Positions 2,806 to 64,000 of a DNA stretch of 64,000 nt are shown one piece after another (the first letter of the stretch is position 1; each line of letters begins with the position of its first letter). Source of the DNA: Bilabrum cf. latius (lineage: Eukaryota). Under the pieces are notes generated by a model, which did not search any database, was not told the origin of the DNA, and saw only the letters and a program-made list of their open reading frames with translations. Both the position numbers and the translations under genes were made by a program. The stretch lies in NCBI GenBank assembly GCA_965178125.1, contig OZ237760.1, positions 682,001-746,000 of the forward strand, given 5' to 3'.

Positions 2806-3791
2806 CCTGCGATGCGGGGTGAGAGCGATAATCGCACAGGGGTGGAGGTAGCAGAAGTTTCCTTTTTGCGGCGGTTGCTGCCCTTTGTGAAGGAGCCCTC
2901 GCGCTCGAACGGCTCGAAAGAACAGAAGCAATTCGTGCTAAATCCATGTTTATCGAGCTCACCAGACTCCTTGGACGCTTAGCAGGTCGCAGGTGCGTGT
3001 ACGAACCTGCGAAATGGGGGAGGAAGTAATCACGTCAACAGGTACTACATAGGGCACAGCGTTGCAAGTCCAGTTTAAAATACTCTGCAAACCATTTTCA
3101 AGCCAGGCGTTATGGAACATCGACGCACTACTAGTGGTCTTGGATGCCTTCAGGTATTCCCAGCAGGTAGCAAGCCAGAGCATCACAATGCAGAGCTTCC
3201 ATTCGAGGATGCTGACATTCACAGAGACGAGTGTTAACGAATCGTCAACGACACGATGCAACGCCGTTGCAGCCTAGAAGGAGCGCCCATCTAGAAAAAG
3301 AGCGACTTCACAGTGAGTCCTACCGAACACACTGCCAGAGCACGGGGCCATATACCAGCTTTTCAAGCATAAGAATGCGGCGGCAGTTATTTATAAGTGT
3401 ACTTCACCCCAATCATACCGATTAAAGCGGCACTTCAGGAGGAAATGGCGCTATGTTGCAAGGTAACGCCAGTAGTAGGACCTGCTGCTCACCTTCCACT
3501 GCCTTGAACACAGAAAATTCAACAAAAGAGCCACTGCGTGTGGTCAACGATATCAGCTGCCCGTTCTATTCTAGAAGCCCACGATATACACGATAGAAGC
3601 GATGTATATCTGGTACGCAGCAGAATACTCGAATGACCCGGGCCTTCGCAACTTGCGACCAAACCTGCGACTGATCCGATCACAATCAGTTACAACCGCT
3701 AGCGTATCCGTTGTTCGAACAGCAGCTACAGGTCCAAATTAGTCCATCAATCGCTACAACTTATTTTTTGTCGTAAAGTGTCAATGAACGT

Positions 3792-11876: not shown

Positions 11877-12010
11877 CTGCCGTTGATGCAGTGGCGTGCG
11901 CTTTTTTTCTTTTTTTCTTGCTTCATGTGTGCGACCGACCGTTGATTGACTGTTTTGCCTCTCCTTCTCGATCTCGGCAAGGCACTGTTCCTGTACTGCA
12001 GTGCTTCTCC

Positions 12011-37360: not shown

Positions 37361-37849
37361 TGCATCGTTGACATGCGCCTGAGTTAGTTGTCAAGCGGAA
37401 ACTCAACATCGCAGAACCGGTAGTGATACCTGGAAATCGCGAGCTTACTGAACAGGTAGCTAATGTCGGGATAAACTCACTAACGCAACAAGTTTTGCGG
37501 ATCAGAAGCCTATAAATATCCGGGCTACCTGCTTTCTGAGCTAACAGAGTGTGTGGGCGATGGAGTGCCTTTGGCCGGATTTGCAGACCAACTAGATGTC
37601 TCGAATGTGTCAGTAAGGACGCGGAGCTACTGAGACGTCCCAGCCATACACAGTGATGCAGAAGGCTTCGCGGCAGCCTTCCTGATCAACGGTCAGTGCG
37701 ACCCTAGGCGTGCTGCAACAGGTCCATGTGTCGGCGCCGCGCTCGTTTGGTCGCACAGTTCCGCTATCAGACAGAACCTTCGTGAACACCGCACGGCAGC
37801 AAGATCCATTTGTGGCCCCTGTGGCGCTCATGTAGGACTATGTATCAAT

Positions 37850-43800: not shown

Positions 43801-46800
43801 CGTGCTAGCGATCGAATGGCTACGTGCCAGCGGCGGGGACCGTGGCCACAGGACAACTGCATCGGAGCTTCTACCGCTGCGTGCACGGCTAGGTCTGCTG
43901 GACGCGAGCGGCAACCTGAGCAAGCAGCACTTTGCCCTGGATGGCTTGAAAGACCTCCGTTCTGCACTGCTTGCTCTGTCCACCACGGCGCTGCTTGCCG
44001 CCACCGAGCGCTGGTGCGTGCTGGCAGAACACGAGGCCGCATCCTCGACGCAAGCGGCAAGCAGCCAGGCTCCCCACCTGCGGCTGTGCCCAAGCCCCTT
44101 CCCGCACTTTAGCGACGTGCTCCACAACGCTCTCAAGAGGTCGGACTGGATGGAGGTGCGCGTGGATTTCTCTCCTGTGCTTACAGTGCTTGCGATGGCC
44201 GCGGAGTCGGACGACGAGGAACATGCAACCATGCTGCTGCAGGCGGTTTGCTCTGGCATAGAACGAACTCACAGGCTCTGCTGCACGCGGTTCGTTGCCC
44301 TGCCAGTGCAAGCCGGGCTCATGGGTGCCCAGCAGCAGCACCTCCAGGGCAATTCCACGTCAACGAGCTCGAGCAAGCAGTCAGCACTCCCTGGTTTCGC
44401 GCCTTCGATGGAGTCCTCGGCGAGTAGAGCTCCCTCCAGCAATGCTGCCTTCCACCCGCACCACGAGTACGGTAATGTGTACCACTCGATTCAGCAGAAA
44501 GCTGTCGTGTACACGGATGCATCGCGGGGGCAGGTGCAAGGGTACAGGTGGCCCATCGTGGGCTCTACGCCGTCTCAACTGATGGTGCCTGTGCGCCACG
44601 AGAAATCGCCGCCCGCCTCCCTGTCGGGCAGCCAGCGAATGCGCAGTGCATCATCAGCAGTGGAAACAGACGTACCGCCAGCGCATTTGCACGTCCACCG
44701 GGGGAACCCGCCAGAAGCGTTCCATTCGGTTGACTCGAAACGGAAGATTGACCGCTTTCCGGTGGCAGCATTCGCCAATACTATCTCTGCGATGCTGTCT
44801 GATGGTGGCAACTTGCCTCTGCAGCATGTTGTCCATTTACATGGCCAGCTGCCGTCAACCAGAGGGCCAGGTCGGAGTGCCAGCGCATTGGGTGGCACAG
44901 ACGGCACAGCGCAGAAGGAGCACAGCAGCGCAGCAAGCCCCGTTGCCAGACCCCGCCCCAGGGCTAGCGCCCTCGCTGGCCCAGACCTTAGCAGCGCAGC
45001 GCGAGAGGAGCGGTCTAGCCATTTGGCGCGGGAGGCATCCCAGGGGGAAACTAAGACGCAGCAGAGCGACGCAACAGAGCCATCTAGCGGGTCAAGCAGC
45101 AGCCTTGATGGACACTCGCAGCCAGCGATGGAGTGGGTCCAGCGAGATCGGCTTGAGGCTCGCGCTCTCAGCACGATGCACGACCTTTTCTTGTCATCCT
45201 TCGGGAGAGAGGCGACGGATGTCGAGTTTGATATTGGCAGCCGGACAAAGGGCGGGCATGCGTCCGCTTGGGCCTCCCACCAAAATAATTCGATGGAACC
45301 CCAGTAGCAAGCGATGGGTGGAATTGACATCGGTAGGTCGCACCCGAGTGTGTCTACGCTGTCGTGGGAACTGCAGCTCCCGTTCCGTGAGTTTGGTAAC
45401 ACGTCTCGTTCTGCGACGGCCACGGAGATGGACTCGTCTGGCGAAGGCACCGACAATTCGGAGGAGCAAAACGAAGATAATGAGCCCCACCGAGCGGGAC
45501 GGAAGTCCTCGGCCCCGCCGTTGCTGAACGCCCGCGGGCGCGATACTGCACCACTGCCATCGTAGAGTCTTGCAGATCGACTGATTGTCCTTAGCGAGCG
45601 CCTGAGCGATCACCAAGACCAGAACGCACATCCCTCGCAACCGCGCGCGGATTTGCACGCGATATCTCGGCTGCAGACGCTAATCGAAGGAGTCCGGCCG
45701 TGCCTGGACTGCCCAGGCCTGCGCAACCGCATCATGCGCCATGCCTCGGAGAGCGCCACTCTGCAGCCAGATGCCATGTCTCCGAGCCGAGCATGCCTGT
45801 TTGCCCGCACTGCCATTGCGGTTCCTGCGGCAATCACCAGAGAGTACCTGCACCGCACTGCAAGGTCATCCACCTCGTCTGCAACGGACGGCGATGCGGC
45901 ACAAGATGACCACGATGGACTCACGCCGACTGAGAGCGTTTGGAGCAGAGTGTCAGCCCGCGCGCGCCAGGCTCTTCTTGGTTTCTTCCAGCGGTTGCGC
46001 GCGTCGGCAGCGCACGCAGAACTGGACGGGCTGATCGCGACGGGGCTGCAGGCGAGGCAGGCGGGGTCCAAGCGGGCTCTGCTGCTTTCCTGCTGCCTGC
46101 CGAGGCGAATGCAAACCGCCAAGGTTTCTATCGTGCTCCCCAACGCGACAAGTTCGGAACTAGTGGGAGCGGTGCAACGCGGCAGGACCAAGACGGCGTT
46201 CGCGCTTCACCGTGAGCTGGAGGTGCTTGCAATCGAGTAGCTCGAGGCCATCGCATAGGTTGCTCGAGGTGTTGCTTCAGTGGAGCACGCAGATATGCTG
46301 CAGGGGGGAATTTCGGATCCGATCAACGCGGACGAGGCGGCGTTTGGAGAGATGCAGGCACTGCTCAGGCCAATGGATGATGGTCCTATCCACGTCCTCG
46401 GTACGATTGGCCGCGGGCACCTCTAGAGCACTGCAGCAACAAATGAGAAAGCTGTAGAGAAGGTGAACAGAGCTGCTGCTGCACTACACCCGCCTTGGTT
46501 TTGCAGTATGCAGTTGGATGGCATCCTAGAGGGTGACCTAAATTCAACCCCGGCGATGGCAGGCAGCAGCGACGCGGTCTCCACCATGCTCCTGGTTCCG
46601 AGCACACTGCCTACCGCTTCCCTGGAGACAGAGCGCGATACCAACGCGTGGCAGCGCATGGAACTCACCGTAAAGTTCCTGACGCTGCCGGGCGTGCAGC
46701 ACGGCACAGCAGCGACCATGCTTATCGAGGGCTTGCGGGGATCCCTCTAGAGATGCACGGACAGGGCTGCGGCCCACCTCGCGCTTGCAAGAATGAGAAG

Positions 46801-49800
46801 CACAAAGACTCTGCCTCGTTTCCTGTACAACTAGCACCGAACGCAAGAGGGCGATGATGCGAGCCTGCCAATGACCGCAACCAGCGATGGAGGCACCAAG
46901 CCCGAGCAGCAGCAGCAGCATCCGCAGTAGGACTTCCCAGTGACACTGAGTGCGATCGACCGACTGTTCAACGGCATCAAGAGAAGCATGCCCGCTGTTC
47001 AGCTAGCACCGTGGGTCAGTGCAGACGATGCTCTCACTTCGGTCAGCCAGGCGCTGAGGGATTTCAAGCTGTCGTCTCATCGTCTTGACCTGGATGTTGC
47101 CGACTAGGCACGGTCCCGATTTTCGTCTACTGATGCCACAGCAGCCCATGACAACCCGCCTGCAGCGGTACAATGCGTTTCAGCAATCTGCATTCAGCCA
47201 GCTGATGAGTCGAAGCGCGGGCTTACTTTGCAGTAGCAGCTATCAAATTTCGATCAGTTTGTGCTCGTGTTGTACTGGCACGAGGCTGGGCCAGACCCCG
47301 CTGGTGGAAATGGCCGCGCGCCTGGCTGCATCACGGGCGTATCATTCAGCTCCAGGCACCCTCCGTCTAGCGTCCTCTCCCAGGTGCACTCTAGGGTGGC
47401 GAGCTGGATGCAGATTGACGCGACTGTTGCTCGTCTGCAACACCCTCCATCCGTGCTGCGGCAACACTGGGACGTGTCAACCGAGGGGGCTGCTGCCTCA
47501 TCGCCGTGGTACGACACCCGCTTGTTCGTCCAGAGCAGCTCGACATCGATGAAGCACGCTGCTATTGCTGGCAAGGAGCCCCTGCATCCTCATGCAGCCA
47601 GCGTTGAAGTGTATCCGCGCAGCACCGTGCCGTCCATCCTGCGCGCCCGAGAATCGGCTGGCACCGCTGACTTGGAATCGATTTGCAGTGAGATGCGCAG
47701 AGAGCTTGATCATCTCGTGACATGCTGGCAGGATGTGCGAGCAGTTGGAAGCAGTGATGCGGTCTTATTGCCCAGAGCTGAGCTTCCAGCAGGCCACACT
47801 CGCGTGTCTCAATCCGCCAGCATCTGTGGTGTGTGTCACCTGAATGTGTCTGATGGCGCAGCAGCTGGCAGCTCAACTGGCCCAAGGCCCGCGCCAGCTG
47901 CCCAACACCCCCACCGAAACGTGACTGATTTGCTAGCTGGATCAAGCAGCGGGGGCGTGCACACGGGGTCTGGCATGATTTCATCTGTCGGCAGTGCCAG
48001 TACTGAAGCCCGCTCGCGGGCCACGCGTGAAATCCTGCGCACATCACGAGCTGACTTGGCCGGCATAGCGGTGGTTCGCATCAGCGTGTCTGTGGTTGAA
48101 GTGCACGAGCAATCAACGGGCGACAGGCGGAGCCATGCCGCTTCACATTCGAAAAGGAGAATCGCTACGTCTGCCAGCTTTCGCGGGGCACGCCCAGCGA
48201 CCACCAAGCATAGATTGCCAGGGAAGCGTGGGCTGCTGCAGCTGCAGCCCACACGCGTACTCCATATCAAGGGAACTGCCAGCAAGGAGCCGTGGCTAAG
48301 AGGAATAGCCCGCATGGGCGCTCCCACGGCAAGCATCCTTCCATCAAGTGAGGAAGAATCCGCAAAGTGCCTGCGGCCAGTCGTCAGCTGTATGTAGCGA
48401 GCCAGCACCACAGTAGCCCTCGTGCTCACGACGGAGATCTGGGTATCCCCCGCGAGACAGCTCTCTGCAGCCCGCAAGCAGCTCTCGCGCCAGCTGCTGC
48501 GGATCGCGGCTGCGTCGGCTTCTGACGGTCTTCGGACATAGGTGTAGCGTGCTGCAGTGCGAGAAGTGCAGTCCACACCAGCAGAGCTGTTGCACTGCAT
48601 GCGGCTTCCATCGGCCGCGACGGTAGCTGCCCGCCTGGAGATGCCACGGCAGGGGCGACTATCTACCCGCGCATGTCGATTTGCGGCTCTGTCTATCGTC
48701 AAGTGGGCGGCCGCAGCCGGTCTAGTGCGAACGAAAACTGTAACAGACTCACGGTCACAGTCACGGGATGGCTAGCAGGAATCAGCTGCCAGTGGGGAGC
48801 ATTCGGTATCTAGTGAGGGCGATCCCATTGCACAGCCCTCCCCGAGCGAACACCCTATTCGCATCGATGTGCTCCTGTCCGGCAGATTGTCCGATCCGAA
48901 GAGGTTTGTGTTTCAATCCACTTCGCCCATCGTGCCCATACCTACCTTCGATCCAAGCAGTGCCACCGATCGAGGGCTAGGTGTGGGTACAGGGCACCAA
49001 GGCTCAGCACCTGACGCACCAAAGCAGACCGCTTCCAGGCTGCTGGCACACTGCCGCGACTGGGAGCGATTTACCCGGGCCTCTGGTCTGTTCCCCTAGG
49101 AGCACGCGATGCTTACCACGACCGAGACGCAGGACGGCACCATGGTCAGGGTAAGGCTCGGCGGCAGTGGCAGTGGCAGTGGCAGTGGCAGTGGCAGTGG
49201 TGTTGATGAAACGCAGGGATTGGTGTCAGGGTTGCGCCATGATGGTCTGGAAGCTTGGCTGGTGGTACTGCTGAGACCTGCGAGCACCGACGTGTTCGTC
49301 CTCGGCACGACCCCGAGGATGGCGGAGCGGCTGATCGGCGAGGTGTGGGGCACTTTGACGTTCCTGTCCGCCGCGGAGCAGCTGCTCCGGCCTCGCGTGG
49401 CCGCAATGAAGGCAGGCAAGCCGATGCCGCTGCATGTACCGGACCTGATAGTGCTGCGTAGGGCGGGAAGCGGCGAGGCGCAGCTGCAGGGAGCATCGTG
49501 CGAGTACGCGACTGCAACAGACATCGACACTTTCCGGGCCCTGATTACACATCGAGTGCGTGGCATGGGTGCTGGGGACGCGGTCCAGCAGTGGCTGCCT
49601 CCAGCTTGCTTGGACCCGGCCGGCCTCGATCACCTCTCGAGTCCGAGTCCAAGGGGCCTTCCGCTGCTGCCTCTCGTGTGCTCAGGGGCTGCAGTCGGGT
49701 TTCGTCTTGGAGCTGTGCTGGCCACGGGCGGCGGCGCATCGCTGCCGAGACCATCCAATACTAGCCATGCGGTGCGGTTTACACTGCTGGACGCATGCAT

Positions 49801-52800
49801 GATCACAGCGTTTTCGGCTCCGAGGCTGCCGCACGCTAGCGTGGCGTCAATCTTGGTCCCAGCCGATGGCACCGAAGGCTGCGATGGTGCATCCAACGTC
49901 AATGCCACGGGGCTTGGACTGCCATTCCTAAACGCAAGGCTCTTCGGCGGCGGCCGCCTGATCGCGGCAGTGACCCGTGATGGTGTTCGTTGGCTGGGCG
50001 ATTGCATGCGCAAAGCACTGCACACGCTTGACTCTAGCAACCATACGAGGTATGGCAGATCCGCAGCGTCCAGCAGCAAGCCTGGCTCCGGCTCTGCAGT
50101 CAGCGGAGACCTCAATCGTGCCCCGTCAAGGACGTAGGCTCCCCGTACACGAAGCGGCGAGGTGCCCTATGCCCCTGGGTTCGGTATGAACCGCAGGGGC
50201 CACGAAGACGACCACCACCTGCGAGCGGCTGCGTCCGACCGCGCGCTGTCCTTCTCCTCCCACGGGACAGGAAGCACCGCCCGGGATTCTCTGCAGCTCG
50301 ACGCTGCGGGGACCGTGATGGACGCGAGGGGCTCCGACGCATCCAAGCGGCAGCAACGTCAGCTGCCTAGCCCAGGTTCGGGTCAGCCTGGCCCCGGGAC
50401 TGGTCCCAGAGATCCGCAAGCACGACGGCCCAGCTCCTCGAGCAATGTGCTGGCCCAGCAGCCGCAGCAGCCCGGGCAGCACCAGAGGCGTCATAGCAGG
50501 GCAGACACGGATACTGGCAGTAAACACTCCAGGAGGCCTTCGGAGCTATCACGGCCGGCCATCCGGCGCAGTGGTGGGCCGGGCGGAGGTGCAGGCGGAG
50601 GTGGCAGCAGCAGCAGTCGCCCTGTGCTAAAGAGCTCAAAGTCGCTGCGCCTGTCTCGCAAACCAGGCGCCATGGCCAGGCGTCACCTTGCCCATTTGGC
50701 CATGCAGGGCGCAGGAGGGCCTGACCCCAGGGGCAGTGTCATGCCCCCATCCGTGCAGCCCATGCAACCACCGGTGCTGAGCACTATCGCACAGAACCCA
50801 ACCGCGCAGCAAACTGGCAGTAGCACGCCATCTGTCAGGTCTGAGGTCCCCGATGCCCATACCGCTGGCGTTGCTGGTGAAGGTGCTGCGCAGGACGCTA
50901 CCGGCGCGGCAATGCCTGGCCTCCTCTCCGTTGAGAGGGCCCCAACAGGCCAGCCGCACCGGGGACCTCTGGCGAAGCGCGCTGCCAGCCCTCGCTCGGT
51001 GGACAGCTCGACGGTCGCAGCAGCAGCCAAGGACGGCGGCATGCCCGAGCAGAAGGCTGCTTCAAGCCGCTCTCTTCTGGTCGATGCCGGCGGGCTGCAG
51101 GCAGACAGCGGCGCTCTGGAGCTGTGTGGCATGGCTGCTGCTGTCGGCGCCACCCTGTCGGCAAGGTGCAACCCCGTGGTGCTCGCTGCCGTGTGCACCG
51201 CCGTGGATTCGCAGGTATTTGCCAGGACGGCGCCGGGGCCCGACCCGCTGCAGCTGGCTCGGTCGGCCCTGGATCTTGTGTCTGCCCAGCAGGGGGGCTG
51301 TGCCTGCCTTGGAGTGGTGGGCAAGGAAGCGTGCAAGTACCTGCTGCAGCTCACCGGCTCCGTGCTGCCGTCCAATGGGACGGGGTCCTGGCTGACTGAA
51401 CCCCTGCCGGGTCCCAGTGCCCATGCCCAGCGCAGATCCGCTCTGGGATCCCGAGTGCGTGCGGCCGCATCAAGAGAGCTTGGATCCCTTGGTAGGTTGG
51501 TTGGATTCTCGGCTGGGGCCAGAGACGTGCTGGCCAACCCGCCGAGCACGCGCGCGATCCTGTCGAACGCCGCAAGGCGCATGGCCAGCGCGGGCGCGGG
51601 CGCGTCCGACTCGAGAACTCCCGACACAAGCCCGGCCAAGGCACCTGCCGCCCCCGGACCGCCGAGGTCCGGTGCGCTCGTCACACCGCAACAGGGGGTA
51701 CCCGGTGGCTTTGGTCATTTCAGGGCGGGAGAGGAAATCCTGGCCAAGACGCGCTTGCTGGACTTCAGGCAGCAGAGCCAGGCCGAAGACCGCGTGATGA
51801 GGACGATTGGGTACGAGGGCACGCTGGGTGGGGCCGTGGCGCGTGGTACTGAGTCGCTGCGAGCGGTGGCTGGGGTCGGAACGGGCGCCGTCAGCCCGTT
51901 CTCCGACAGCCCCTCTACACACGGCACTCCTCCCGCGGCCTATCTGCGGGCCCTCATGCCCGGATTTGGACCCATGGCCACGGTACAGGACCGGCACAGG
52001 GAAGAGGCCCTGGCGAGTGCGATCCTGCGGCAGAGGCAGCACCAGCTGCTGCAGGGACACCTCAGGGCCGTCGACAACAGGTCGCACTCGCCGCCCCGAA
52101 GTGGGGGTGGGGCGAGCGGCGTGCTCGGGGAGAGGGCCCGGTCCGTGTCGGTGGCATCTACGCAGAGCGGGGCTGCTCGGGGCGGCAGACCAGAGCACCG
52201 CACCTCGGCCGAGCGGGCCCGGAGCGGCATCAGCGAGATGTACGGCAGGCAGCACATCCACAGGTGCGGCTTTGAAGTGCCGCTCGTGGCCGGGCTCTCA
52301 GTGGCCGGTGCCTGTGCCGCTGTGCTGAGCACGCTTCTCGCCAGCATCCGCGCTGGGACGGGCGAGTGGCCCGTGAGAGCGTGCCACTTCCATACGGAAG
52401 ACGCGGGATCGAGCCCCGCCCCGAGCCCCGCCGGCATGAGCGCTCCATCTCCCGGGCCGCGGCGGCGCGATGTGGCCTGGTTTTCTCTTCTGCACGCAGC
52501 GGCCGGGACCGTGTCTAGGACCAGGGGCACCCTCGGGCTGCAGCGGCACCAGGCGCGGGCGATGGCAGAGAGGAGAGCAAAGGAGCGAGCAAGGGAAGGT
52601 GCGGGGATCGGCGGCAAGGGGCCTCCATCAGCAAGCAGGTCGGGGCAGGCTGGTACCACTGACCCCGCCGCCGCTTAGGCCCGTGACAAGCGACCTGTTA
52701 CGACCCGTGCCCCCTCGCCGAAGCGGGGCTCCTCTTCGACCAGGCTGCCAATTTGCATCTGTGTGACCTTTTGCAGGGTCACCAGCACGGCCCCAGTCAA

Positions 52801-55800
52801 CACGCCGCGCCCGTCCTCCAACCGAAGACTTGGCTCCTCTGTTGCTGTTCCCGACGCTGAGCGCGAGGGTAGGCCGGGTCTGACGGGCCAGTACGGGGAC
52901 ACATCGGCCTGGGTGGAGCTGTGCACGATGCCGCTGGGAGTTTGGAGGCCTTCGCAGTGGTCGCAGTACGCGAGCAAACAGCAGCAAAGGAGGGCGGCTT
53001 CCGGCGAGCGATCCGCCGGTGGCGCGCAGGAGACCAAGGAGGGTGAGGGCGAGGCTGAGGACGCATTCACCGCGGCGGTGCGTCCTATCCACGACGAAGT
53101 GGCCAACACGCTGTCCCCTGCCAGGCTGCGGTTTGCGGGCCAGTCGGCATAGGCCGGCACCACTCCGCTGGCGGGCTTTGAGCTTGCGCCCGGCCAGTTC
53201 GACGAGATCAGCTTGCCGATCGTGGCCACGTCCGGGCTGGGCATGAGCACGAGCAGCAGCCCGCCGGTCGGCCGCAACGCAGGAGCCTCTGGCGGGCGCG
53301 GCGCCAGCGATGCCCACACGATCGGTAGGTTGTCCTCCTTTGCGCCCGAGGCTCTGCGTACTGCCGAGTCGGTTCGAGTGCCCGAGTCCTCGATCAGCGG
53401 GACCGCTGGCGGTCAAGGATACGCTTCGATTCGACCTGGGACTGTGGCGTGGCCGGCAGCGAGCGTGCAGGCAGTCGTGTCTACGATGCTTCGGATGGTC
53501 GCAGAAGAGGCAGCCAGGGCAGCGATGGTGAGGCCACAGGCGCCCCTGTGCGTGTCACCCATGGCCGACGGTGAGCCGAGTCGGCTGCGGTTCCGCTCCG
53601 TCCGCTCGTTTGTTCCCCAGGGCCCGCACAGGCAGCTTCTGGAGCACGAGGATCCGGTGGGTGCAGACCTGCTGCCTGCCGTGATGACCGTGCACACTGA
53701 CAGGGGCTGGGCGGCCGTGGCGCAGGCCGCCGTGCACCCGTGCTCGCGGGACATCAGCAGGAGTCGGGGCGACGGCACGTTCCATGCCTCGCTGTCCGGC
53801 ATGGTGACTCTGCCGGAGCAGGACACGCACCCGCCCACGTTCCGGCAGGACACGGCAGGCACGCAGGCCGATCTCTTCCAGGTTGCATGCTGCGGGGGGC
53901 AGGGCTTCGCCATCGCTGCTTCCAAAGCGGTGGCGGGTCAGTGCCAGGCGCAGTTGCAGCACGAGTGGGGCTCTTGTGCCAGGGAACAAGCCAGGGAACA
54001 AGGAGGTGCGCCGGACCTGGCAGGAACGACAGCGGGTACAGGCGCAAGCACAGGCGCGGGCGGGCCAGAGGCCAACCCGGAGCAGCCACCCATCCGCGTG
54101 TCGCTGTGCGGGTCAGCCATGGCCCCATTCGCTGTCAGAGGGAACGGCGGCTCACCGTCAGGGATGTCGTCACCGGCCCCAATGGCAAGCCCGGGGGGGC
54201 AGCATCGGCAGGCGCCGTTCCGAGGCGTGGCATCATCGTCGACGCAGTGCGGGTGCTTCGTACATGCGGCGCTGCGGGTTGGGAGCACCGCTCCGGACCT
54301 AACCTGGAAGCAGCAGTACGAAATGCAGCAAGCTCACAAGAGCGAAGATATCGCAACTGCTGGTGGGACCAATGCTGTCCCAGCCAAAGCAGGGGCTAGG
54401 CAGGGCAAGCCATTTCTCGCCGGAGGATCGGCGCATCGCTCTGGATCCATTGACCGAGGTGACCTATCCGTCGACCTTTGGCTGGTACCAGTGCCCATTC
54501 CCGCCCCGGCGAGCCAGAATGGGTCGCCCATGGGGGCCTCCGGTAGCATCGCGGTGGAATACGTGGCGCACGTGACGAGCACCTCCCGGCAACTCGCATC
54601 CAGCGGTTTGCATGCCGTGCAGCAGTGCGTGCAGGCGTCCTCCCTTGCTCTCATCAGAGAGGCCATGCTGTTGGCTGCGTGGGAGGCCGGCGTGCTGCTG
54701 CTGCCCTCGCCCGAGTTCTGGCCCAGGCTCATTGGGGTAGAGGCATCCGCCTCTGAGATCGACGGCTACCTGGTGCGCAACCTCAACACTATGCTGGCCA
54801 CACCCCCGCCCGCTGGGGGCACCGCCCGCGGGCATGGCACCGTGGTGCATCGCACGCAGGCACAGGCTGCCATGGAGCTTGCCTTGGGCACGGATGGTAG
54901 CGGGGATGGTGAAACTGCCGCCGCAGCAAATCATCATGCTGTCGCTGCCAGGCCCGCGATAGCATCCCCGTCAGGTGTCCGCAACAGCTCAGCGGGGGAC
55001 AGCGGCACGCCGCACTCCAGGCAGGGCTCGCAAGATGGTAGTCCAGTGCACGGGCGCGGCGGGGGTCCTTAGGATGTGCACGATGATGAGGAGCACGATG
55101 GTGGTGACCTTCTCAGCGCGCAAGAAGGTGCAAGGAGGAGCCTGAGGGGGCTGAGGCGGTTGCTGGATCCGCAGAGCGGCGTGTATGGGGCCGGCCGATC
55201 CATCCTGCTGCTTGCCAGCCTGGCTGCCAAGTAGAAGGGCAGGCGAGAGCTGGAGACACCGCTTCGGGCTCTGTGTGCTACGCTTCGGCTGCGCTCTCGG
55301 CTGCACGCTGGGGCGCAGCCCGCGGTGCAGTAGCTGGCCGTGCTGCTGCGGCTGGCTGCATCTACCAGTCTCGTGTCGGTGCGCGCTGGACTTGCCACCA
55401 ACGCCGCCCTGAGGTCCTGTGGGCCCAACTGGGTTGGTGCCAGGACGGCTGCTGAATTCCCGCTGCGGCCCAGCATCGTAGTGCTGCTCGTGCACGCCAG
55501 ACAGAGAGATCGGGCGCTGCTTGGCATTTGCTGCACCGATATCCCTTCCGGTGGTCGAGCCGGGAGCGCCAGTGGAGAAGCAGCAGGTGCGGCCCAAGGC
55601 GGCAGCAGCGCGCGGGGCACCACTCCGGTGGCCCCGCTGCCCCCACCTGATTTGCGGCTGTTCTCACTGGCAGCTCCCGGTTGGAGCCTACTGCGCGGGG
55701 GAAGCGCTGGAGAGTCTGGGGGTGGACTCACCGGCAACTGGTGGTCTGCGCCGCTGCGGATGCTCATGCCCAGGGAGCAAGCTGCAAGCAGCTTGGGTTC

Positions 55801-56059
55801 CTCTGGTGGCACGGCAGTAGGGGGGAAAGGTCTAGGCGAAGATTCAAGGGATGGAATAGGTGGTGGCGCGCAAGAAGCCCCCCAAGACGTTGCGAGGGCA
55901 TAGTTCGAGCAGGGCCTCGCCCTAGCGGTGCCAGGGTGGAACGGTGAGGGCGCTTGCAAGGAGCTGCTGCTGGACGAGGTGAGCAAGTCGCACTAGGCGC
56001 TGCTTGCTGCGATTGAGAGGGAGCGAGAGGCAGAGCAGGCTAGACGTGAGGAGCTGTGA
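37850..56059 (+). CDS. Giant uncharacterised protein, 6069 aa, single uninterrupted frame under TAG=Gln
   Basis: All of ORFs 37850, 38429, 38810, 39200, 39803, 40487, 41558, 41879, 42818, 43124, 45314, 45653, 46463, 47261, 48557, 48869, 49109, 50162, 52763, 53213 and 55340 share a frame. The gaps, read by hand, contain only TAG (about 42 in total). The first TGA is at 56057-56059. Confidence 0.82.
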
Positions 56060-56191
56060 GCCGGGTCAGGAATGACTAAGGATCCGATAGGCTGGGCTTG
56101 CCCTGTGAGAGTCTTGAAAATCAGTTCGTCTGTGACTTATATTTAATGTCATGGCGTTAGGATCACCTAATTTGCAGTCAAATTTGCCAAA

Positions 56192-57363
56192 ATGTTGAAG
56201 TTCAGCTGCAACTAGCAATGGGGCACTATCCGGGATCGCCCAGGGGAGTCCGATGGATTCGATTGCATAAAGCCCGCTGGAACGGCTGGCAGCGCTGCTC
56301 TGCTTGCCATCGGTCGCGCCCGCGCCTCTCGGAAGGGACTCTCGTCGAACAAATCTCCCGCTGGTGTGCATACGCTGGATACTGCGCTAGTCATCATGAA
56401 GGAGCTGCTCGACGCCGGTGCGGATCCGAACGCCAAGGGTTTAGTGAGAGCCGCGATTGTGCGAGTCTCAGCCAGACGTCATGCCAACAGTCGCTGCGTA
56501 CCTCGCTCGCTGACTGCACGCGTGCATCGGAAGCTTGCATCACTCTCCACTTAGTATTTTGCTTGCAGGACGGATCGCCGCCTCTCCACGCCTGCACCGC
56601 CGAGGCACACGAACCGCTGGCCCGGTTGCTGCTCGCACATGGAGCAAGTGCTCGGGCAAGCAATTCTCGGGGATGGACGGCCGCACACTTCGTGTGCTGC
56701 AACTCAGACGTGCACATGGCCGAAATACGGGGAACGAGCATTCTCCAGCTACTCGCAGATTACGGCGCTGATTTTGGCGCAGTCAACGAAACAGGCAAGG
56801 CGCCGCTCGATTACGTCATGAGGAGGAACGCCGGTTGCAACCCCGCCGTGCTCGCCCTCCTGCTACAGCCCTAGAGCGCGCTTGCAGACAGGCCCGCCCG
56901 GACCGGCTTGCCGTCATGGAGGTCGGACTTCGCCGAATACCTGGAACAGCTCATAAGGAAAGAGAAAGAGGCCGGAAAGCCGCTGCGGGAGGCCGGGCTC
57001 GTCATGGTGCCGTACGACGTGCGGGGGCCGGCCTTTGGAGAAGACATGGTGAAGAATCGCTGTGGATCGCAGGGACGCGATGGATGCTCTGGTGAGACAG
57101 GCGGCCAAAGGGGCCAACGCGCCTGCCCCATCGGAGGACGCGGCGGCGGGAGTCAAGGCCGCCTGGCAGCGCGCTTGGAGGCTGCGGCTCGGGGGTGCGC
57201 TGGGAGCAGGGGCCATCTTGCAGACCCAGCCGTACGATGTGCCCAGGTGGCTGCCGCCCTTTGCAGCAGCCCTGGCACGGCGCGGGGCCTCGGACAAGCA
57301 GCGGGAGGTGAAACAGTCGGTGCAGAAGGCCTTCCAGGAGTTCAGGCGGACGCACGCGTCTGA
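56192..57363 (+). CDS. Short ankyrin-repeat protein (intron 56444..56568); 3' end uncertain
   Basis: The spliced product reads IMKELLDAGADPNAKGL|DGSPPLHACTAEAHEPLARLLLAHGA...RGWTAAHF...LLADYGADFGAVNETGKAPLDY. TAGs at 56213 and 56872 are read through. After ~57060 the frame overlaps the PA200 fragment and no longer looks protein-like. Confidence 0.7.
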
Positions 57364-57448
57364 CTGGGAGCGCGAGTCGCAGAGGTTTGACAGGGAGGAG
57401 TCGGCCGCCCTGCGCGACCTAGAGGTATCGCCGCACTACTTCGTGTGA
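57062..57448 (+). other. Isolated C-terminal domain of proteasome activator PA200/Blm10 (gene fragment, fused exon or mini-gene)
   Basis: GGALGAGAILQTQPYDVPRWLP...VKQSVQKAFQEFRRTHASDW......F...E...LRDLEVSPHYFV-TGA matches the recalled PSME4/Blm10 C-terminal pattern PYDVP.W.P...F.RTH.D.W...VSP.YYA. Only ~125 aa are present. Confidence 0.8.
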
Positions 57449-57805
57449 TGATGCGATGGATTCAGGCCCCGGGGTTTCATCAAGTGCCGCCAAGCGGACA
57501 CAGCAACCCGGAATGAGAACTGGTGCGGCATGACCCAAGATGCTCATTCCTGTGATTTGCAACGAGATGTCATCTTGGTCATTTGATTCTAGCGAGTACT
57601 ACCGCGAAGGAAACCGACACCCGCCGTCTCGTCAACAGTTTCTTTGAGAAAGCGATCCAGTCCGCCGCATCCGGTGATGACGCTACCATGGAGACCATGC
57701 TTGGAATGCTTCGAGCGCGCAGCATTCCTCTTGATTTGACAATACGAGCAAGCGCTTTACGTTCCTGCGTATTTCCTGCTGGGTGCCCCAGTGTTCAATT
57801 GGGTC

Positions 57806-60800
57806 TCACGAAGCTGCTGCAGCAAAAGGTAAAGCGCTCTCCAGCAGTGCCTCCACCTGCGGGCACGGCCGCCCAGCGGATCGCAGTTGGGACAGCAGAT
57901 CGGTCCCAGGTACTGCAGTACCCACTGCACCCTCGGGGGGATGCATGGCCATCGAGGCAACCAGGGAGACAGCAGCACAGGCAGCGCCATGCCCTGCAGA
58001 TCCCATGCGCACCTCCCACGCCTCCACCAGCACCCTCACGCACTCGTCATGGCCCTCGAGCAATGCCGCCACTAGCGGACCGCTCAACCAGCCCAAGGGA
58101 CCAGGCCCCGGGACATCTACCACTGCAACTGCCACCGGGCCACGAATCTCCATCCCACCCGCCAGCCGGCCCAGCCTCAGCCGCTTGGCCAGCTCCAGCG
58201 GCCTGCCCTCCCTGGCAGCTCGGTGCACCATGACAGCATCTCGTTTGGCCTCCACGGCCCTCCTCCACCGGGCCAAATGCAGGATCCTCGGGTTAAACTC
58301 CCGGATGAGCTTGGCCGTGGCTGTCTTGCCCGTGTGGTCTGCTTCCTCTGCTGGGGTGCGTCCGTCCTGCAGCAGTAAGTTACAACCTGCAATACGTTTA
58401 GAAGTATGTTAGTAAGCCAATAAGTCGAATCAATCACAAGAAAACCCATCTCACCTTGTTCTTGGCCGTCCTGCTGGCTCCGGCCCGCAGCAGAGCGAGA
58501 GCCGCGGCGTCCCTGCCACAGTAGGCGGCTTGATGGAGAGGGGTGCCCTTGTTCTGCGGAATCAAGTAGCCAAAGATGCATATTATCATCTCAATGTGAA
58601 TGCCAACCCGCAATCATGTTCAAGGTCCGCAGGGAAGGCCCGAGGAGCAGCTATTGACATGGATCATCGATTTCCCGGTTCCTAGAAAAGCGCTGGCGTG
58701 CTCCGACCTGGTCGCAAGCGCAGCTACCCACTAGCATGCAAATAGGCAAAGCCAACGCAACCAGTACGATTAAGTCGACAAGCAAACCAATAATAGTCAT
58801 ACACGTGCAGCGAGGAACAGGCTAGGTAGGCCTGGCCGACGAACAGGATGCTCGGAGCAAGCAACTGCATCGGCTCTGTAATCAGTTGATTCACTATCTC
58901 GATTTTGCACACAGGCCCGCTGATTTCAATGGTACAAATTCCATCGTCTAACTCCGCCTGCATCCCGAGCGATCCCGGCTCCCAAGACACAAGCGCTCCT
59001 CGACCACCTCACGACCACGCCGCACCCTTCCCAAGCCGAGTCACAGGGAACATTAACTCCCATGCATCCAACCATCCCAGTCAAACATACATCACGAAAA
59101 CTCACATTGTCCTCAGCGTTCACATCGGCCCCCGCTGCCACAAGCGCACCCACCACGTCGGCGTGGCCACTTTCGGCTGCCACATGAAGCGGTGTGCGCT
59201 GGCCCTGTGAGCAAGGAAAGCAAAGGACGACAGAAGAGGGGGTGGGAAGGCACGGCAACGGAAGGCCGAAAAGGGGGTCCAGCGAACGGAAGTCACAGTC
59301 AGAGCATCGGCGCCGCGCAATCCACCCATGGACTGGCCTCTGGCCCCCACAGGTTCCGCTGCATCCACTCGCCCAAGCACCCAGCCAACACTGGCACCAT
59401 TCCAGCATATGCAACCCCAATCACAAATCATATCCCACAACCAAATTACCAGACCACACATCCAGCCATCCAGGACTGCGGCAAGGCCGCCCGGCAGGCA
59501 TGGTCGCAAGCTTAGCGCAGTCGGCTGAAGGCTGAAGATTGCAACTGTTGCATTGTGTGTAAACTGTACCCAGCAGACGCAGCTCGATGAGAGGACTCAG
59601 GATCTAGTTGGATCGCCTTGTTCTTGCGCCTGCATCCCGAGCTATCCCGGCTCCCAAGACACAAGCGCTCCTCGACCACCTCATGACCAGGCCGCACCCT
59701 TCCCAAGCTCCCATGCATCCAACCATCCCAGTCAAACATACATCACGAAAACTCACATTGTCCTCAGCGTTCACATCGGCCCCCGCTGCCACAAGCGCAC
59801 CCACCACGTCGGCGTGGCCCTTTTCGGCTGCCATATGAAGCGGTGTGCGCTGGCCCTGTGAGCAAGGAAAGCAAAGGACGACAGAAGAGGGGGTGGGAAG
59901 GGATGGCAACGGAAGGCCAAAAAGGGGGGACAGCGAACTGAAGCTAGAACCAGAGCATCGGCGCCGCGCAATCCACACATGGACTGGCCTCTGGCCCCCA
60001 CAGGTCCCGCTGCATCCACTCGCCCCAGCACCAAGCCGGCATTGGCACCATTCCAGCATATCCACCAATCCCAAAATACAAATACATAATCATATCCGCG
60101 ACCAGACCGACCATACATCCGGGACAGCGGCAAGGCCGCCGGGCGGGCATGGCCCGAAGCTGGGCGAACCACAGTCGGCTGAAGGCGGTAGATTGCGACT
60201 GTTGCATTGTGTGTAAACTGTACCCAGCAGACGCAGCTCGATGAGAGGACTCAGGATCTAGTTGGATCGCCTTGTTCTTGCGCCTGCATCCCGAGCTATC
60301 CCGGCTTCCAAGACACAAGCGCTCCTCGACCACCTCACGACTATGCCGCACCCTTCCCAAGCCGAGTCACAGGGAACGCTAACTCCCATGCATCCAATCA
60401 TCCCAGCCATACATACATCACATCAACTCACCTAATCCTTGGCATTCGCATTGGCCCCAGCTGCCACAAGCGCACCCACCACGTCGGCATTGGCTGCCAT
60501 ATGAAGCGGTGTGCGCTGGCGCTGTGAGGAAGGAAAGCAAAGGACGACAGAAGAGGGGGTGGGAAGGGATGGCAACGGAAGGCCAAAAAGGGGGGACAGC
60601 GATCCGAAGCTAGAACCAGAGCATCGGCGCCGCGCAATCCACACATGGACTGGCTTCTGGCCCCCACAGGTTCCGCTGCACCCACTCGCCCAAGCACCAA
60701 GCCGGCACTGGCACCATTCCAGCATATCCAACCTCCAGTCCCAAAATACAAATACACAATCATATCCGCGACCAGACCGACCATACATCCGGGACTGCGG

Positions 60801-63800
60801 CAAGGCCGCCCGGCGGGCATGGTCGCAAGCTGGGCGAACCGCAGTCGGCTGAAGGCGGTAGATCACAAATGTTGGATTGTGTGCATAATGCGCCCAGCGG
60901 TCGACACTCGATGAGAGGACTCAGGATCTAGTTGGATCACCTTTTGGTTCCCCCTGCATCCCGAGCTATCCCGGCTCCCAAGACACAAGCGCTCCTCGAC
61001 CACCTCACGACTATGCCGCACCCTTCCCAAGCCGAGTCACAGGGAACGCTAACTCCCACGCATCCAACCATCCCGTCCATCTATCCATAAATCACATCAA
61101 CTCACCCAGTCCTTGGCATTCACATTGGCCCCCACTGCCACAAGCGCACCCACCACGTCGGCGTGGCCACATTGGGCTCCATTATGAAGCGGTGTGCGCT
61201 TGTACTGTGAGGAAGGAAAGCGAGGGATAGTAAGGCGGTTCGGAAGAGATGGCAATGGAAGGCACACGGGAAGCAGCGAACGGAAGTCACAGTCAGAGCA
61301 TCGGCGCCGCGCAATCCACCCATGGACTGGACTAGATCTGTGGCCCACAGGTCCCGCTGCACCCACTCGCCCCAGCACCAAGCCGGCACTGGCACCATTC
61401 CAGCATATCCAACCCCAATCACAAATCATATCCCACAACCAAATTACCAGACCAGTCCATCCAGCCATCCAGGACTGCGGCAAGGCCGCCCGGCGGTCTT
61501 GGCCCCAAGCCGGGCGAACCGCAGTCGGCTGAAGGCGGTAGATGTCGGAGCTTGTGTGCATAATGTGCCCATCGGTCGACACTCGATGAGAGGACTCAGC
61601 ATCTGGTTGGATCGCCTTTTGGTTCCCCCTGCATCCCGAGCTATCCCGGCTCCCAAGACACAAGCGCTCCTCGACCACCTCACGACTATGCCGCACCCTT
61701 CCCAAGCCGAGTCACAGGGAACGCTAACTCCCATGCATCCAATTATCCCAGTCAAACATACATCACATCAACTCACCTAGTCCTTGGCATTCACATTGGC
61801 CCCCACTGCCACAAGCGCACCCACCACGTCGGCGTGGCCACATTGGGCTCTGTTATGAAGCGGTGTACGCTTGTACTGTGAGGAAGGAAAGCGAGGGGCA
61901 GGGGGGAATGACAAGGGATGGCAACGGAAGGCCAAAAAGGGAAACAGAGAACCGAAGTTAGAACCAGAGCATTGGCGCCGCGCAATCGACCCATTGACAT
62001 CGTGACTTCCATGTAAAAAATTCAAGATGATCTGTCAGTCCTTGGCTCTTCCACCCCGAATGGAGGCGATTGACTGGAGAGCAGACGCAGTTCGATGAGA
62101 GGACTCAGCATCTGGTTGGATCGCCTTTTGGTTCCCCCTGCATCCCGAGCTATCCCGGCTCCCAAGACACAAGCGCTCCTCGACCACCTCACGACCAGGC
62201 CGCACCTTTCCCAAGCCGAGTCACAGGGAACATTAACTCCCATGCATCCAATCACCCCAGTCAAACATACATCACGAAAACTCACCCAGTCCTTGGCATT
62301 CGCATTGGCCCCAGCTGCCACAAGCGCACCCACCACGTCGGCATTGGCTGCCAAGTGCAGCGGTGTGCGCTTGTCCTGTGAGGAAGGAAAGCGAGGGACG
62401 GCAAGGGAGAAGGGAAGGGATAGCCAGGGAAGGCCAAAAATGGGGGACAGCGAACGGAAGTCACAACCAGAGCATCGGCGCCGCGCAATCCACCCATGGA
62501 CTGGCCTCTGGCCCCCACAGGTCCCGCTGCACCCACTCGCCCAAGCACCCAGCCAACACTGGCACCATTCCAGCATATGCAACCCCAATCACAAATCACA
62601 TCCCACAACCAAATTACCAGACTACACATTCAGGAATCCAGGACTGCGGCAAGGCCGCCCGGCGGTCATCATCGCAAGCTTAGCGCAGTCGGCTGAAGTC
62701 GGTAGATCGCGACTGTTGCATTGTGTGCATAATGCGCCCATCGGTCGACACTCGATGAGAGGACTCAGCATCTGGTTGGATCGCCTTTTGGTTCCCCCTG
62801 CATCCCGAGCTATCCCGGCTCCCAAGACACAAGCGCTCCTCGACCACCTCATGACCAGGCCGCACCTTTCCCAAGCCGAGTCACAGGGAACATTAACTCC
62901 CATGCATCCAATCATCCCAGTCAAACATACATCACATCAACTCACCTAGTTCTCGGCATTCACATTGGCCCCCGCTGCCACAAGCGCACCCACCACGTCG
63001 GCGTGGCCACTTTCGGCTACCATGTGCAGCAGGGTGTACTGGCCCTGTGAGGAAGGAAAGCGAGGGACGGCAAGGGAGAAGGGATGGGAAGGCATGGCAA
63101 TGGAAGGCCAAAAAGGGGGGACAGCTAACGAAAGTCACAACCAGAGCATCGGCGCCGCGCAATCCACCCATGGACTGGCCTCTGGCCCCCACAGGTCCCG
63201 CTGCACCCACTCGCCCTAGCACCAAGCCGGCATTGGCACCGTTCCAACATATCCAACCCCAATCACAAATCACATCCCACAACCAAATTACCAGACCAGT
63301 CCATCCAGCCATGCAGGACTGCGGCAAGGCCACGCCCGGCGGTCATCATCGCAAGCTGGGCGAACCGCAGTCGGCTGAAGTCGGTAGATCGCAAATGTCG
63401 GAGATTGTGTGCATAATGCGCCCATCGGACGCAGCTCGATGAGAGGACTCAGCATCTGGTTGGATCGCCTTTTGGTTCCCCCTGCATCCCGAGCTATCCC
63501 GGCCCCCAAGACACAAGCGCTCCTCGACCACCGCACAAGAACTCACCCAGCCCTCACCATTCACATTGGCCCCCGCTGCCACAAGCGCACCCACCACGTC
63601 GGCGTGGCCCTTTTCGGCTGCCATATGAAGCGGTGTGCGCTGGCCCTGTGAGCAAGGAAAGCGAGGGACGGCAAGGGAGAAGGGATGGGAAGGCATGGCA
63701 ACGGAAGGCCAAAAAGGGGGGACAGCTAACGAAAGTCACAACCAGAGCATCGGCGCCGCGCAATCCACCCATGGACTGGCCTCTGGCCCCCACAGGTCCC

Positions 63801-64000
63801 GCTGCACCCACTCGCCCTAGCACCAAGCCAACACGGGCACCATTCCAACATATCCAACCCCAATCCCATATACAAATACACAATCATATCCGCGACCAGA
63901 CCATCCAGCTATCCATCCGGGACTGCGGCAAGGCCACACCCGGCGGGCATGGTCGCAAGCTTAGCGCAGTCGGCTGAAGTCGGTAGATCGCGACTGTCGG
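57806..64000 (-). CDS. Multi-exon ankyrin-repeat protein, one repeat per exon; 5' part beyond the window
   Basis: Phase-0 exons flanked by CAG| and |GTGAG at 63645..63547, 63044..62946, 62375..62286, 61875..61777, 61204..61106, 60521..60432, 59855..59757, 59204..59106 and 58553..58455. The terminal exon 58366..57806 ends in TGA. Each exon is 99 or 90 nt, e.g. GQRTPLHVAAESGHADVVGALVAAGADVNAEDN. Confidence 0.85.
58955..64000. repeat. Tandem array of ~8 exon+intron cassettes, period ~510-675 bp
   Basis: Recurrent blocks (CAAGCGCACCCACCACGTCGGC, CCCAAGACACAAGCGCTCCTCGACCAC, CAGAGCATCGGCGCCGCGCAATCCAC). Exon-to-exon spacings are 651, 675, 674, 671, 509, 660 and 601 bp. Confidence 0.95.

Follow-up and report, generated by a model that had tools for sequence, protein, structure and literature searches.

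Tandem one-repeat exon cassettes in a spliced ankyrin-repeat gene of a genome that appears to read TAG as a sense codon

We analysed a 64,000-nt stretch of the GC-rich (~62%) genome of Bilabrum cf. latius, a eukaryote with spliceosomal introns (contig OZ237760.1, positions 682,001 to 746,000 of the forward strand; hereafter the window, numbered from 1 to 64000), and found that the minus strand of its region 57806-64000 carries the 3' portion of a spliced gene for an ankyrin-repeat protein. The sequenced part of this gene codes for at least 477 codons. Nine short exons lie between 58455 and 63645 (-); their length is 99 nt in seven cases and 90 nt in the other two, and every one encodes a single ankyrin repeat. 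Eight of them (E1-E8) belong to a tandem array of cassettes, in which a unit of ~0.66 kb composed of one exon and its intron recurs with a spacing of 500-684 nt. All nine short exons match Pfam Ank (PF00023, clan Ank), with scores of 23.6-41.5 bits for a gathering cut-off of 21.1 bits, all borders of E1-E9 fall between codons (phase 0-0), and the nine complete introns have GT..AG ends. These data confirm, with corrections, the original prediction made for this DNA, that at least nine symmetric phase-0 exons each encode one ankyrin repeat, and its first interpretation is partly supported. The gene extends beyond the range it proposed, 58455-64000, to a tenth exon at 58366-57806 (-). From 5' to 3', the features of the gene are the following:

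63646-64000 (-): I0, partial intron (its 3' 355 nt), ending in CACAG, 82-91% identical to I1, I2 and I4-I7
63547-63645 (-): E1, 99-nt exon encoding GQRTPLHMAAEKGHADVVGALVAAGANVNGEGW; Pfam Ank, 36 bits
63045-63546 (-): I1, 502-nt intron, GTGAGT..CACAG, with ~87 nt missing near the 5' end when compared with other cassette introns
62946-63044 (-): E2, 99-nt exon encoding GQYTLLHMVAESGHADVVGALVAAGANVNAEN plus a terminal TAG; Pfam Ank, 30.1 bits
62376-62945 (-): I2, 570-nt intron, GT..AG
62286-62375 (-): E3, 90-nt exon encoding DKRTPLHLAANADVVGALVAAGANANAKDW, with a 3-codon deletion; Pfam Ank
61876-62285 (-): I3, 410-nt intron, its middle swapped for an unrelated insert at ~61999-62091
61777-61875 (-): E4, 99-nt exon encoding YKRTPLHNRAQCGHADVVGALVAVGANVNAKD plus a terminal TAG; Pfam Ank
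61205-61776 (-): I4, 572-nt intron, GT..AG
61106-61204 (-): E5, 99-nt exon encoding YKRTPLHNGAQCGHADVVGALVAVGANVNAKDW, 96% identical to E4; Pfam Ank
60522-61105 (-): I5, 584-nt intron, GT..AG
60432-60521 (-): E6, 90-nt exon encoding RQRTPLHMAANADVVGALVAAGANANAKD plus a terminal TAG; Pfam Ank
59856-60431 (-): I6, 576-nt intron, GT..AG
59757-59855 (-): E7, 99-nt exon encoding GQRTPLHMAAEKGHADVVGALVAAGADVNAEDN; Pfam Ank
59205-59756 (-): I7, 552-nt intron, GT..AG
59106-59204 (-): E8, 99-nt exon encoding GQRTPLHVAAESGHADVVGALVAAGADVNAEDN, the last cassette exon; Pfam Ank
58554-59105 (-): I8, 552-nt intron, GT..AG, its first ~155 nt (59105 to ~58953) cassette-derived and the remainder unique
58455-58553 (-): E9, 99-nt exon encoding NKGTPLHQAAYCGRDAAALALLRAGASRTAKNK; Pfam Ank
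58367-58454 (-): I9, 88-nt intron, GT..AG
57806-58366 (-): E10, terminal exon of 186 codons, closed by the TGA at 57808-57806 and opening with a degenerate ankyrin repeat, DGRTPAEEADHTGKTATAKLIREF
57992-58279 (-): C-terminal module within E10 (approximately residues 30-125), predicted to be ankyrin-like, which defines the family described below

The regularity of the array is apparent at several levels. A 24-nt exon core is found in eight exact copies on the minus strand and in none on the plus strand, and each 99- or 90-nt open stretch is preceded by TTCCTCACAG or TTGCTCACAG and followed by GTGAGT. Introns I1-I7 all start with GTGAGT and all end with CACAG. Six of the eight cassette exons measure 99 nt, E3 and E6 being reduced to 90 nt by the deletion of three codons (9 nt), and the most deviant cassette exon is E2, in which TPLH is changed to TLLH. 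E9 shares 52-60% nucleotide identity with E1-E8 and appears to be an older, diverged ankyrin repeat, and no family was matched by the terminal exon E10 in a Pfam scan. Chance is not an issue for the array, and the cassette sequence has no further match elsewhere in the 64-kb window. It is unlisted in the output of Tandem Repeats Finder for the window, because the longest period there is 500. At the other end, the array runs past the window edge at 64000, where a further intron, I0, is cut; as I0 is of the cassette type, the array continues upstream of the window end. Exon borders sit at the tip of the beta-hairpin finger, between the two most variable residues of the repeat (positions 33 and 1). 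An open reading frame (ORF) on the plus strand, 62074-62949, was rejected as a gene, being open in one unit only.

Parts of the stretch are matched by seven public sequencing runs. X1-X4, from organism A, contain 0.61-0.64 of the sampled words, and X5-X7, from organisms B and C and from two other studies, contain 0.08-0.13; no run matching the stretch is on record as RNA, and the RNA status of X5-X7 was guessed. Contigs of X1 and X3 (DNA-like) and of X5 and X6 (RNA-like) were placed on 57000-64000. Coverage is low over some segments in some runs, as at 60978-61211 in X1, and such segments were left out of the interpretation. Nine of the ten joints listed for X5 and X6 are exon-exon joints, all at predicted borders, and none of the six listed for X1 and X3 is. 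In X5, the depth is 0 in bins containing only intron, and bins containing exons are covered. The E9|E10 joint (58365->58454, cut +1) and the E8|E9 joint (58553->59106, with one variant bearing one other letter) are present in both X5 and X6 and have CT..AC ends. Seven joints among those listed for these two runs connect cassette-type exons, with 3, 9, 12, 30, 37 and, twice, 1 intervening letters. These numbers are exactly the count of exon bases that differ from the window, and the predicted borders are therefore used in all nine exon-exon joints. Splicing at the E8|E9 and E9|E10 borders is directly visible in these contigs, and we conclude that the predicted splicing holds for this gene, or for relatives sharing at least 96% identity with it over the listed pieces.

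The cassette exons E1-E8 are 81-97% identical to each other and the cassette introns 78-92%, with values of 85-92% among I1, I2 and I4-I7, and lower values for I3 because its middle is replaced by the unrelated insert. I1 and I3 depart from the others through large deletions or an insertion. Similarity between cassettes ends ~155 nt into I8, which places the end of the duplicated unit inside the intron, as duplication by recombination between introns would predict. That the eight exons were copied together with their introns, as originally proposed, is supported; by contrast, the description of these introns as near-identical was overstated, given 78-92% identity and copies that have diverged by 8-22%.

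The nearest neighbour of every unit shifts repeatedly along the aligned unit: U7, for example, most resembles U1 and U8 over the exon, U2 beyond the exon, U6 in mid-intron, and U2 and U4 further on. In an alignment of six units, from which U3 (large replacement) and U8 (end of the array) were left out, all four combinations were present in 49% of the pairs formed by 75 informative biallelic sites. Neighbouring sites in this alignment were far more compatible than in shuffled order, with a PHI-like statistic of 0.299 versus 0.489 +/- 0.016 after permutation (0/2000 permutations as low). Taken together, these patterns show the cassettes to be mosaics and point to gene conversion or unequal crossover. 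The predicted recombination among cassettes is thus supported by the shifting neighbours and by the four-gamete and PHI-like tests, as well as by other exon orders found in contigs. Indeed, RNA-like contigs contain exon orders that do not exist in the window (E4->E3, E2->E7, E8->E1 and E1->E9 types), and paralogues, alleles or sister species account for them, as each of these contigs has base differences from the window. In addition, at least five cassette-to-cassette joints absent from the window are present among the joints listed for the DNA-like runs, and are best explained by additional mosaic cassettes, either at other loci or in the part of the array beyond 64000.

Two introns contain further sequences of note. 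Contigs of X1, X3, X5 and X6 match 62015-62080, within the I3 insert (~61999-62091), and then diverge on both sides; this piece is therefore multicopy, and it is probably transcribed elsewhere. In I8, a 15-nt element at 58592-58606, 39 nt upstream of E9, is the perfect complement of the 3' part of E4 and E5 and is 93% complementary to E3 and E6. We estimate the chance expectation of a perfect 15-nt inverted match in 7 kb at ~0.02, and the element may be what remains of an inverted piece of exon, or a site for RNA pairing. A 20-nt complement of 80% at 57193-57212 was rejected as meaningful, being GC-rich and chance-like.

Where the cassettes differ is not random with respect to the fold. Codons 15-23 (ADVVGALVA) are identical in all eight cassette exons, and variation is found at exon positions 1, 2, 8, 9, 11, 12, 14, 24, 27, 28 and 31-33. 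Numbering was anchored by aligning TPLH to the consensus of designed ankyrins. On this alignment, exon positions 33, 1, 3, 11, 12, 24 and 31 correspond to positions 2, 3, 5, 13, 14, 26 and 33 of the libraries of designed ankyrin repeat proteins (DARPins), as reportedly numbered by Binz et al. 2003. The mean diversity of amino acids reaches 0.583 over the seven library-equivalent positions versus 0.161 elsewhere (permutation p=0.00027), a difference that supports the placement of the variation at the binding surface. With the Nei-Gojobori method, the surface codons (library positions and exon position 2) have proportions of nonsynonymous (pN) and synonymous (pS) differences of 0.319 and 0.182, respectively, and the remaining codons a pN of 0.083 and a pS of 0.141. 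Intron divergence approximately equals pS. This pattern would fit purifying selection on the framework combined with fast change on the binding face.

E2, E4 and E6 finish with an in-frame TAG immediately before the donor site, so that their reading frames depend on TAG being translated. Across the window, TAG indeed behaves as a sense codon. Three plus-strand frames free of TGA and TAA extend over 6141 codons (37634-56059), 2699 codons (3777-11876) and 1723 codons (11801-16972), and contain 42, 18 and 10 in-frame TAG, respectively, with 0 TGA and 0 TAA; the remaining two frames of these three stretches contain 25-105 TGA and 1-12 TAA. The longest TGA/TAA-free frame in 50 block shuffles reached 689 codons. 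Reading TGA or TAA as sense yielded no comparable frames in the window, and TGA closes all ten of the long ORFs. When a gene for a PDR-type ABC transporter is translated with TAG as Gln, the second nucleotide-binding domain and ABC2_membrane (residues 793-997) lie in one frame, the Pfam match to ABC2_membrane crosses TAG codon 859, and an alignment of 16 homologues has no gap at this codon. The best full-length named homologues of this transporter, from Cafeteria, oomycetes and plants, are at most 37% identical. The homologues have I, L, V, N, M, S or A in the column of codon 859, the one well-aligned TAG site, so that homology singles out no amino acid; TAG is, however, embedded in CAG/CAA runs, such as CAG CAC CAG TAG CAG at 15653, which points to Gln as its likely meaning. 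Spliced contigs also carry in-frame TAG over the junction, in GAC TAG|TAC AAG and in GGC TAG|TAC AAG GGC, the former in a contig present in X5 and X6 that links 61777 (E4) to the start of an E3-like exon. We conclude that TAG is probably read as Gln, that TGA is a stop, and that TAA, which is absent from ~10,500 codons with a CAA:CAG ratio of 62:197, is probably still a stop. The 64-kb window contains no tRNA gene. A pseudogene reading based on the three terminal TAGs of the ankyrin gene was rejected by this window-wide evidence. The original prediction had overlooked both these in-frame TAGs and the non-standard code that accounts for them.

Nuclear reassignment of UAG alone is described in a rhizarian (Leu) and in Iotanema (Gln) (PMC5304391), and in some ciliates (PMC11687900). 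Among the papers listed by our literature search, none describes a GC-rich non-ciliate with a UAG-only code beyond the rhizarian and Iotanema. As to the content of the long frames, the 6141-codon frame (37634-56059, +) matches no Pfam family and is of low complexity, rich in Ala, Ser and Gly. The 1723-codon frame (11801-16972, +) contains a match to a mechanosensitive-channel beta-domain, and at ~8800-9000 (+, approximate) in ORF 3777-11876 a GA-type dinucleotide repeat encodes ~30 in-frame Gly-Ala pairs. A further example of a TAG-sense frame is found at 26296-29559 (+).

The cassette array is followed by a constant part, the C-terminal module of E10. This module reads W+RA.EA+RDA..V..AA.EGRPLELAKRLRLG.LAGG ... 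PL.AAL.GGH.ECV.VL, and E10 thereby carries the pattern W+RA.EA+RDA...EGRP.ELAKRLRLG.LAGG...PL.AA.LGGH.ECV.VL that defines a protein family. At E<=1e-3, a full HMMER search with E10 against 1.84 billion representatives retrieved 112 proteins; 30 of these pass E<=1e-10 and none passes E<=1e-30. Most of the family matches are short fragments of unnamed assemblies, and the ten whose origin was looked up came from Logan (6), ENA (2) and NCBI (2), with a name only on a generic ankyrin match. In the 17 family sequences inspected, the module is C-terminal. It is preceded by ankyrin repeats in P0001 (Pfam) and, in our reading, by leucine-rich sequence resembling leucine-rich repeats (LRRs) in P0039 and P0068, two proteins in which Pfam finds no family; in the other inspected members, it comes after regions without a Pfam family. 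Four residues, R55, L59, R62 and G66, are invariant among 44 aligned module sequences.

Several comparisons bear on the fold of the module. In the PDB, a profile of the module alignment picks up ankyrin proteins of both designed and natural origin (best 6ndz_B, E 1e-14), the match placing ELAKRLRLG on a cap-like (N-cap-like) first helix and PLEAARLGGHEECVKVL on a regular repeat. The AlphaFold model of E10 has a mean pLDDT of 77.6, and of ~90 over residues 11-135; when it was submitted to Foldseek, ankyrin proteins ranked first, with 0 at E<=0.001, and the Atlas neighbours are mostly ankyrin clusters. From profile and model, we consider the C-terminal module to be ankyrin-like.

The module is multicopy, as revealed by the many contigs with a variant base at 58168 (20 in X1, 12 in X3, 11 in X5 and 7 in X6). 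Within the window, ORF 29842-31851 (+), which is LRR-like, contains three in-frame TAG and ends with the same module (EGRPMELAKRLRLGKLAGG...GGHVECEAVL), shares with E10 a 63-nt DNA match of 90% at 31678-31740. Two members of the module family with different repeat types are thus located less than 30 kb apart. X1 and X3 each have one contig that skips 99 nt (33 codons), 58054-58154, in the linker between the module halves, likely a paralogue or an allele with a shorter linker. A convergent ORF with ankyrin repeats (Ank_4, E 1e-9) is located at 56161-56871 (+), a short distance past the end of the giant frame and facing the 3' end of the cassette gene, and is devoid of the family C-terminal module.

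Other searches were negative. A word search with E10 among longer proteins returned nothing. A search with the E8 region retrieved generic ankyrins, all at no more than 72% identity apart from two rows with 92% over 30% of the query. It yielded no close paralogue, and the collection searched seems to lack the proteome of this organism. In metagenome scans, the module pattern gave 24 pattern matches, 0 of which were confirmed, and the exon core gave 0 matches. Pfam detected no ROC-COR or NB-ARC signalling core in E10, P0001, P0039, P0068 or P0071, the 5' part of the gene lying beyond 64000. The ZU5-UPA and death domains of the canonical ankyrins (ANK1-3) are likewise not seen, E10 having no Pfam family.

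The best explanation as a whole, which we consider probable, is that of a spliced ankyrin gene that underwent cassette amplification and exchange, uses TAG as a sense codon and ends with a family module. A ~0.66-kb exon-intron unit would have been amplified in tandem to at least eight copies, continuing past 64000. The copies would since have diverged by 8-20% and swapped segments by gene conversion or unequal crossover in their homologous introns, the reading frame being kept through each exchange because every exon is symmetric. With constant framework residues and varying ligand-facing surface residues, the product would consist of stacked binding modules that are alike without being identical. 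The gene would be transcribed and spliced, with the terminal TAGs of E2, E4 and E6 decoded as sense, probably as Gln. Its conserved C-terminal module, common to a multicopy, lineage-specific family with ankyrin or leucine-rich N-terminal parts, would act as a common downstream contact or cap. The anatomy, the splicing at the E8|E9 and E9|E10 borders, the mosaic structure and the location of the variation are observed directly; we infer a putative protein-binding adaptor whose specificity diversifies on an evolutionary, germline scale, among paralogues and strains. An immune-like role, alternative exon use and somatic change are possible but unsupported.

A number of points weigh against this explanation. 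No contig spans the array, and the number and order of the cassettes hence rest on the assembly, while the N-terminal part of the gene is beyond the window end at 64000. The tenth joint listed, 61221->59300, found in X5 only, is intron-to-intron. The RNA label of X5 and X6 is a guess of the tool, which flags X5 as 'probably DNA', and the organism labels of both differ from those of the DNA runs. Their contigs are a few percent off the window (for example, 3 other letters in 84) and may stem from close relatives, not from this very gene. Regarding selection, the figures come from eight short, non-independent, recombining sequences and from library positions as reported for DARPins, and with only eight such sequences positive selection and relaxed constraint are not separable. 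Over the whole exon, pN is 0.136 and pS 0.147, a pN/pS of ~0.93 that, alone, fits relaxed constraint. Natural ankyrin repeats vary most at these surface positions anyway, and the pattern is therefore no proof of positive selection. Finally, TPLH is lost in E2 (TLLH) and three codons are missing in E3 and E6.

Among the alternatives, the first would make the locus an active generator of repertoire, in which cassettes are combined within one individual by exon skipping, exon choice or somatic recombination to yield an immune-like receptor against viruses, parasites or prey. All exons being of phase 0-0, any subset of them is in frame, and the family exists in multiple copies that pair variable repeats with a constant module. 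Contigs of X5 and X6 link an E1-like exon directly to an E9-like exon (58552->63549) and display E4-like->E3-like, E2-like->E7-like and E8-like->E1-like orders that are absent from the window; the 15-nt complement in I8, upstream of E9, could in principle loop out exons. However, all the contigs with unusual junctions differ from the window at or near the junction (TAG for TGG, TAC for AAC, AAA for TAG). These base differences mean that the contigs come from other copies, alleles or species, and do not demonstrably reflect the splicing of this locus. The predicted exon skipping is accordingly not borne out, since paralogues or strains explain the alternative junctions equally well. Likewise, the four matches of the 15-nt complement count as one event, the exons being copies of each other, and the window shows no sign of a signalling domain, a recombinase or a deaminase. 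We consider a repertoire generator unlikely.

A second alternative sees in the array a neutral, possibly decaying tandem duplication, that is, a young internal macrosatellite shaped by drift and gene conversion with no selection for diversity. The whole-exon pN/pS just given points in this direction, as do the similar levels of intron divergence (8-22%) and pS (0.147), the loss of TPLH in E2, the 9-nt deletion in E3 and E6, and the large deletions and insertion in I1 and I3. Yet all eight cassette exons are open, with no TGA or TAA, and have kept both splice sites, and a framework pN (0.083) lower than pS (0.141) argues that purifying selection persists. Moreover, replacements are sited non-randomly, on the binding surface, and the spliced contigs include cassette-type exons, some of them ending in TAG. 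Neutral duplication thus strikes us as distinctly unlikely.

A misassembly of reads from dispersed paralogues, which would have created the array or its copy number and order, is highly improbable. It could be invoked since no contig of the four runs spans the stretch, five cassette-to-cassette joints of the DNA-like runs do not exist in the window, and the best runs carry only 0.61-0.64 of the sampled words. But the units are distinguishable, being 8-22% different with private indels, DNA contigs from two samples match the unit-specific stretches 58341-58911, 59985-60227 and 61821-62032 exactly, and the extra joints are what one would expect if other loci, or the array upstream of 64000, contained more mosaic cassettes. 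A mutually exclusive cluster of the Dscam type, for which the single 15-nt complement is the sole possible pairing element, was rejected, as the E1|E2, E2|E3, E4|E3-like and E8|E1-like joints connect cassette-type exons to one another, so that several are included in series and not one per mRNA.

The amplified and exchanged ankyrin cassettes have their closest described counterpart in the brown alga Ectocarpus. In the published accounts (PMC3341825; see also PMC11378527 on exon-shuffled genes), the LRR (ROCO) and tetratricopeptide repeat (TPR; NB-ARC) genes of this alga encode each repeat in one phase-0 exon, the units are shuffled, and selected sites are located on the binding face. The ankyrin array resembles these genes, as described there, in having one repeat per exon and equal-length phase-0 exons (99 nt in seven, 90 nt in two), in the duplication and shuffling by recombination of exon-intron units, in belonging to a multigene family, and in having its variable residues on the ligand-binding face. 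It differs from them in that the repeat is an ankyrin (99 nt) instead of an LRR (72 nt) or a TPR, that no ROC-COR or NB-ARC is seen, the N-terminus being outside the window, and that the constant part is a C-terminal module of predicted ankyrin-like fold. Its introns, in contrast to those described in the alga, contain no full reverse-strand or inactivated exons, only the 15-nt inverted fragment, and the organism is another one, in which TAG is a sense codon.

Other known systems share some of these features. For the membrane-binding domain, the vertebrate ankyrin genes (ANK1-3) reportedly have, mostly, one 33-residue repeat per 99-bp exon (Gallagher et al. 1997). The likeness lies in 99-nt one-repeat exons with an intron at the same place in each repeat. 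The introns of vertebrate ankyrin genes are old and mutually unrelated, and are not known to include recent cassette copies or mosaicism, and canonical ankyrins carry ZU5-UPA-death domains, none of which is found by Pfam at E10 of the gene described here. The array also recalls DARPins: in each 33-residue module the framework is constant while the surface positions vary, and the alignment of the family module with designed ankyrins covers their N-cap-like helix and first repeat. The array is, by contrast, natural and genome-encoded, its modules are putative binding modules that vary also at positions 8, 9, 27, 28 and 32, and two of them have a 3-residue deletion. Surface positions are randomised in DARPin libraries (PMC8683736). 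In a survey of repeat expansion in metazoans, recombination in introns is one mechanism discussed, and ankyrin repeats are mostly duplicated several together (PMC1553488). The tandem duplication of repeat-coding exons through intron recombination is common to that survey and to the array, where the unit is different, a single repeat with its intron. Exon shuffling is raised only as a possibility in a preprint on ankyrin arrays (10.1101/858845), and among the papers inspected in our literature search there was no report of tandem exon-intron cassettes of one ankyrin repeat each.

These results have consequences for annotation and for the study of repeat proteins. Genes of this genome have to be predicted with TAG as a sense codon, as the standard code would call the ankyrin gene, and most large genes of the window, broken. 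The copies being young, the duplication unit, its intronic end point and the recombination mosaics are directly readable, which makes the locus a good natural case for the growth and diversification of repeat proteins. In brown algae, freely recombining cassettes with one repeat per exon have been proposed as a way for receptors with LRR and TPR repeats to evolve rapidly, and the locus displays the same genomic logic for ankyrin repeats. A further-reaching view, which we hold to be doubtful, is that of a lineage-specific recognition family of at least 20 genes, with ankyrin or LRR arrays attached to a constant module, whose cassettes would be reshuffled within and between loci, and perhaps chosen by splicing, in a protist with UAG=Gln. 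If true, this family would be an ankyrin-based counterpart of the exon-shuffling LRR/TPR receptors of brown algae. Variable repeats joined to a constant C-terminal module provide a concrete family in which a role in recognition may be tested.

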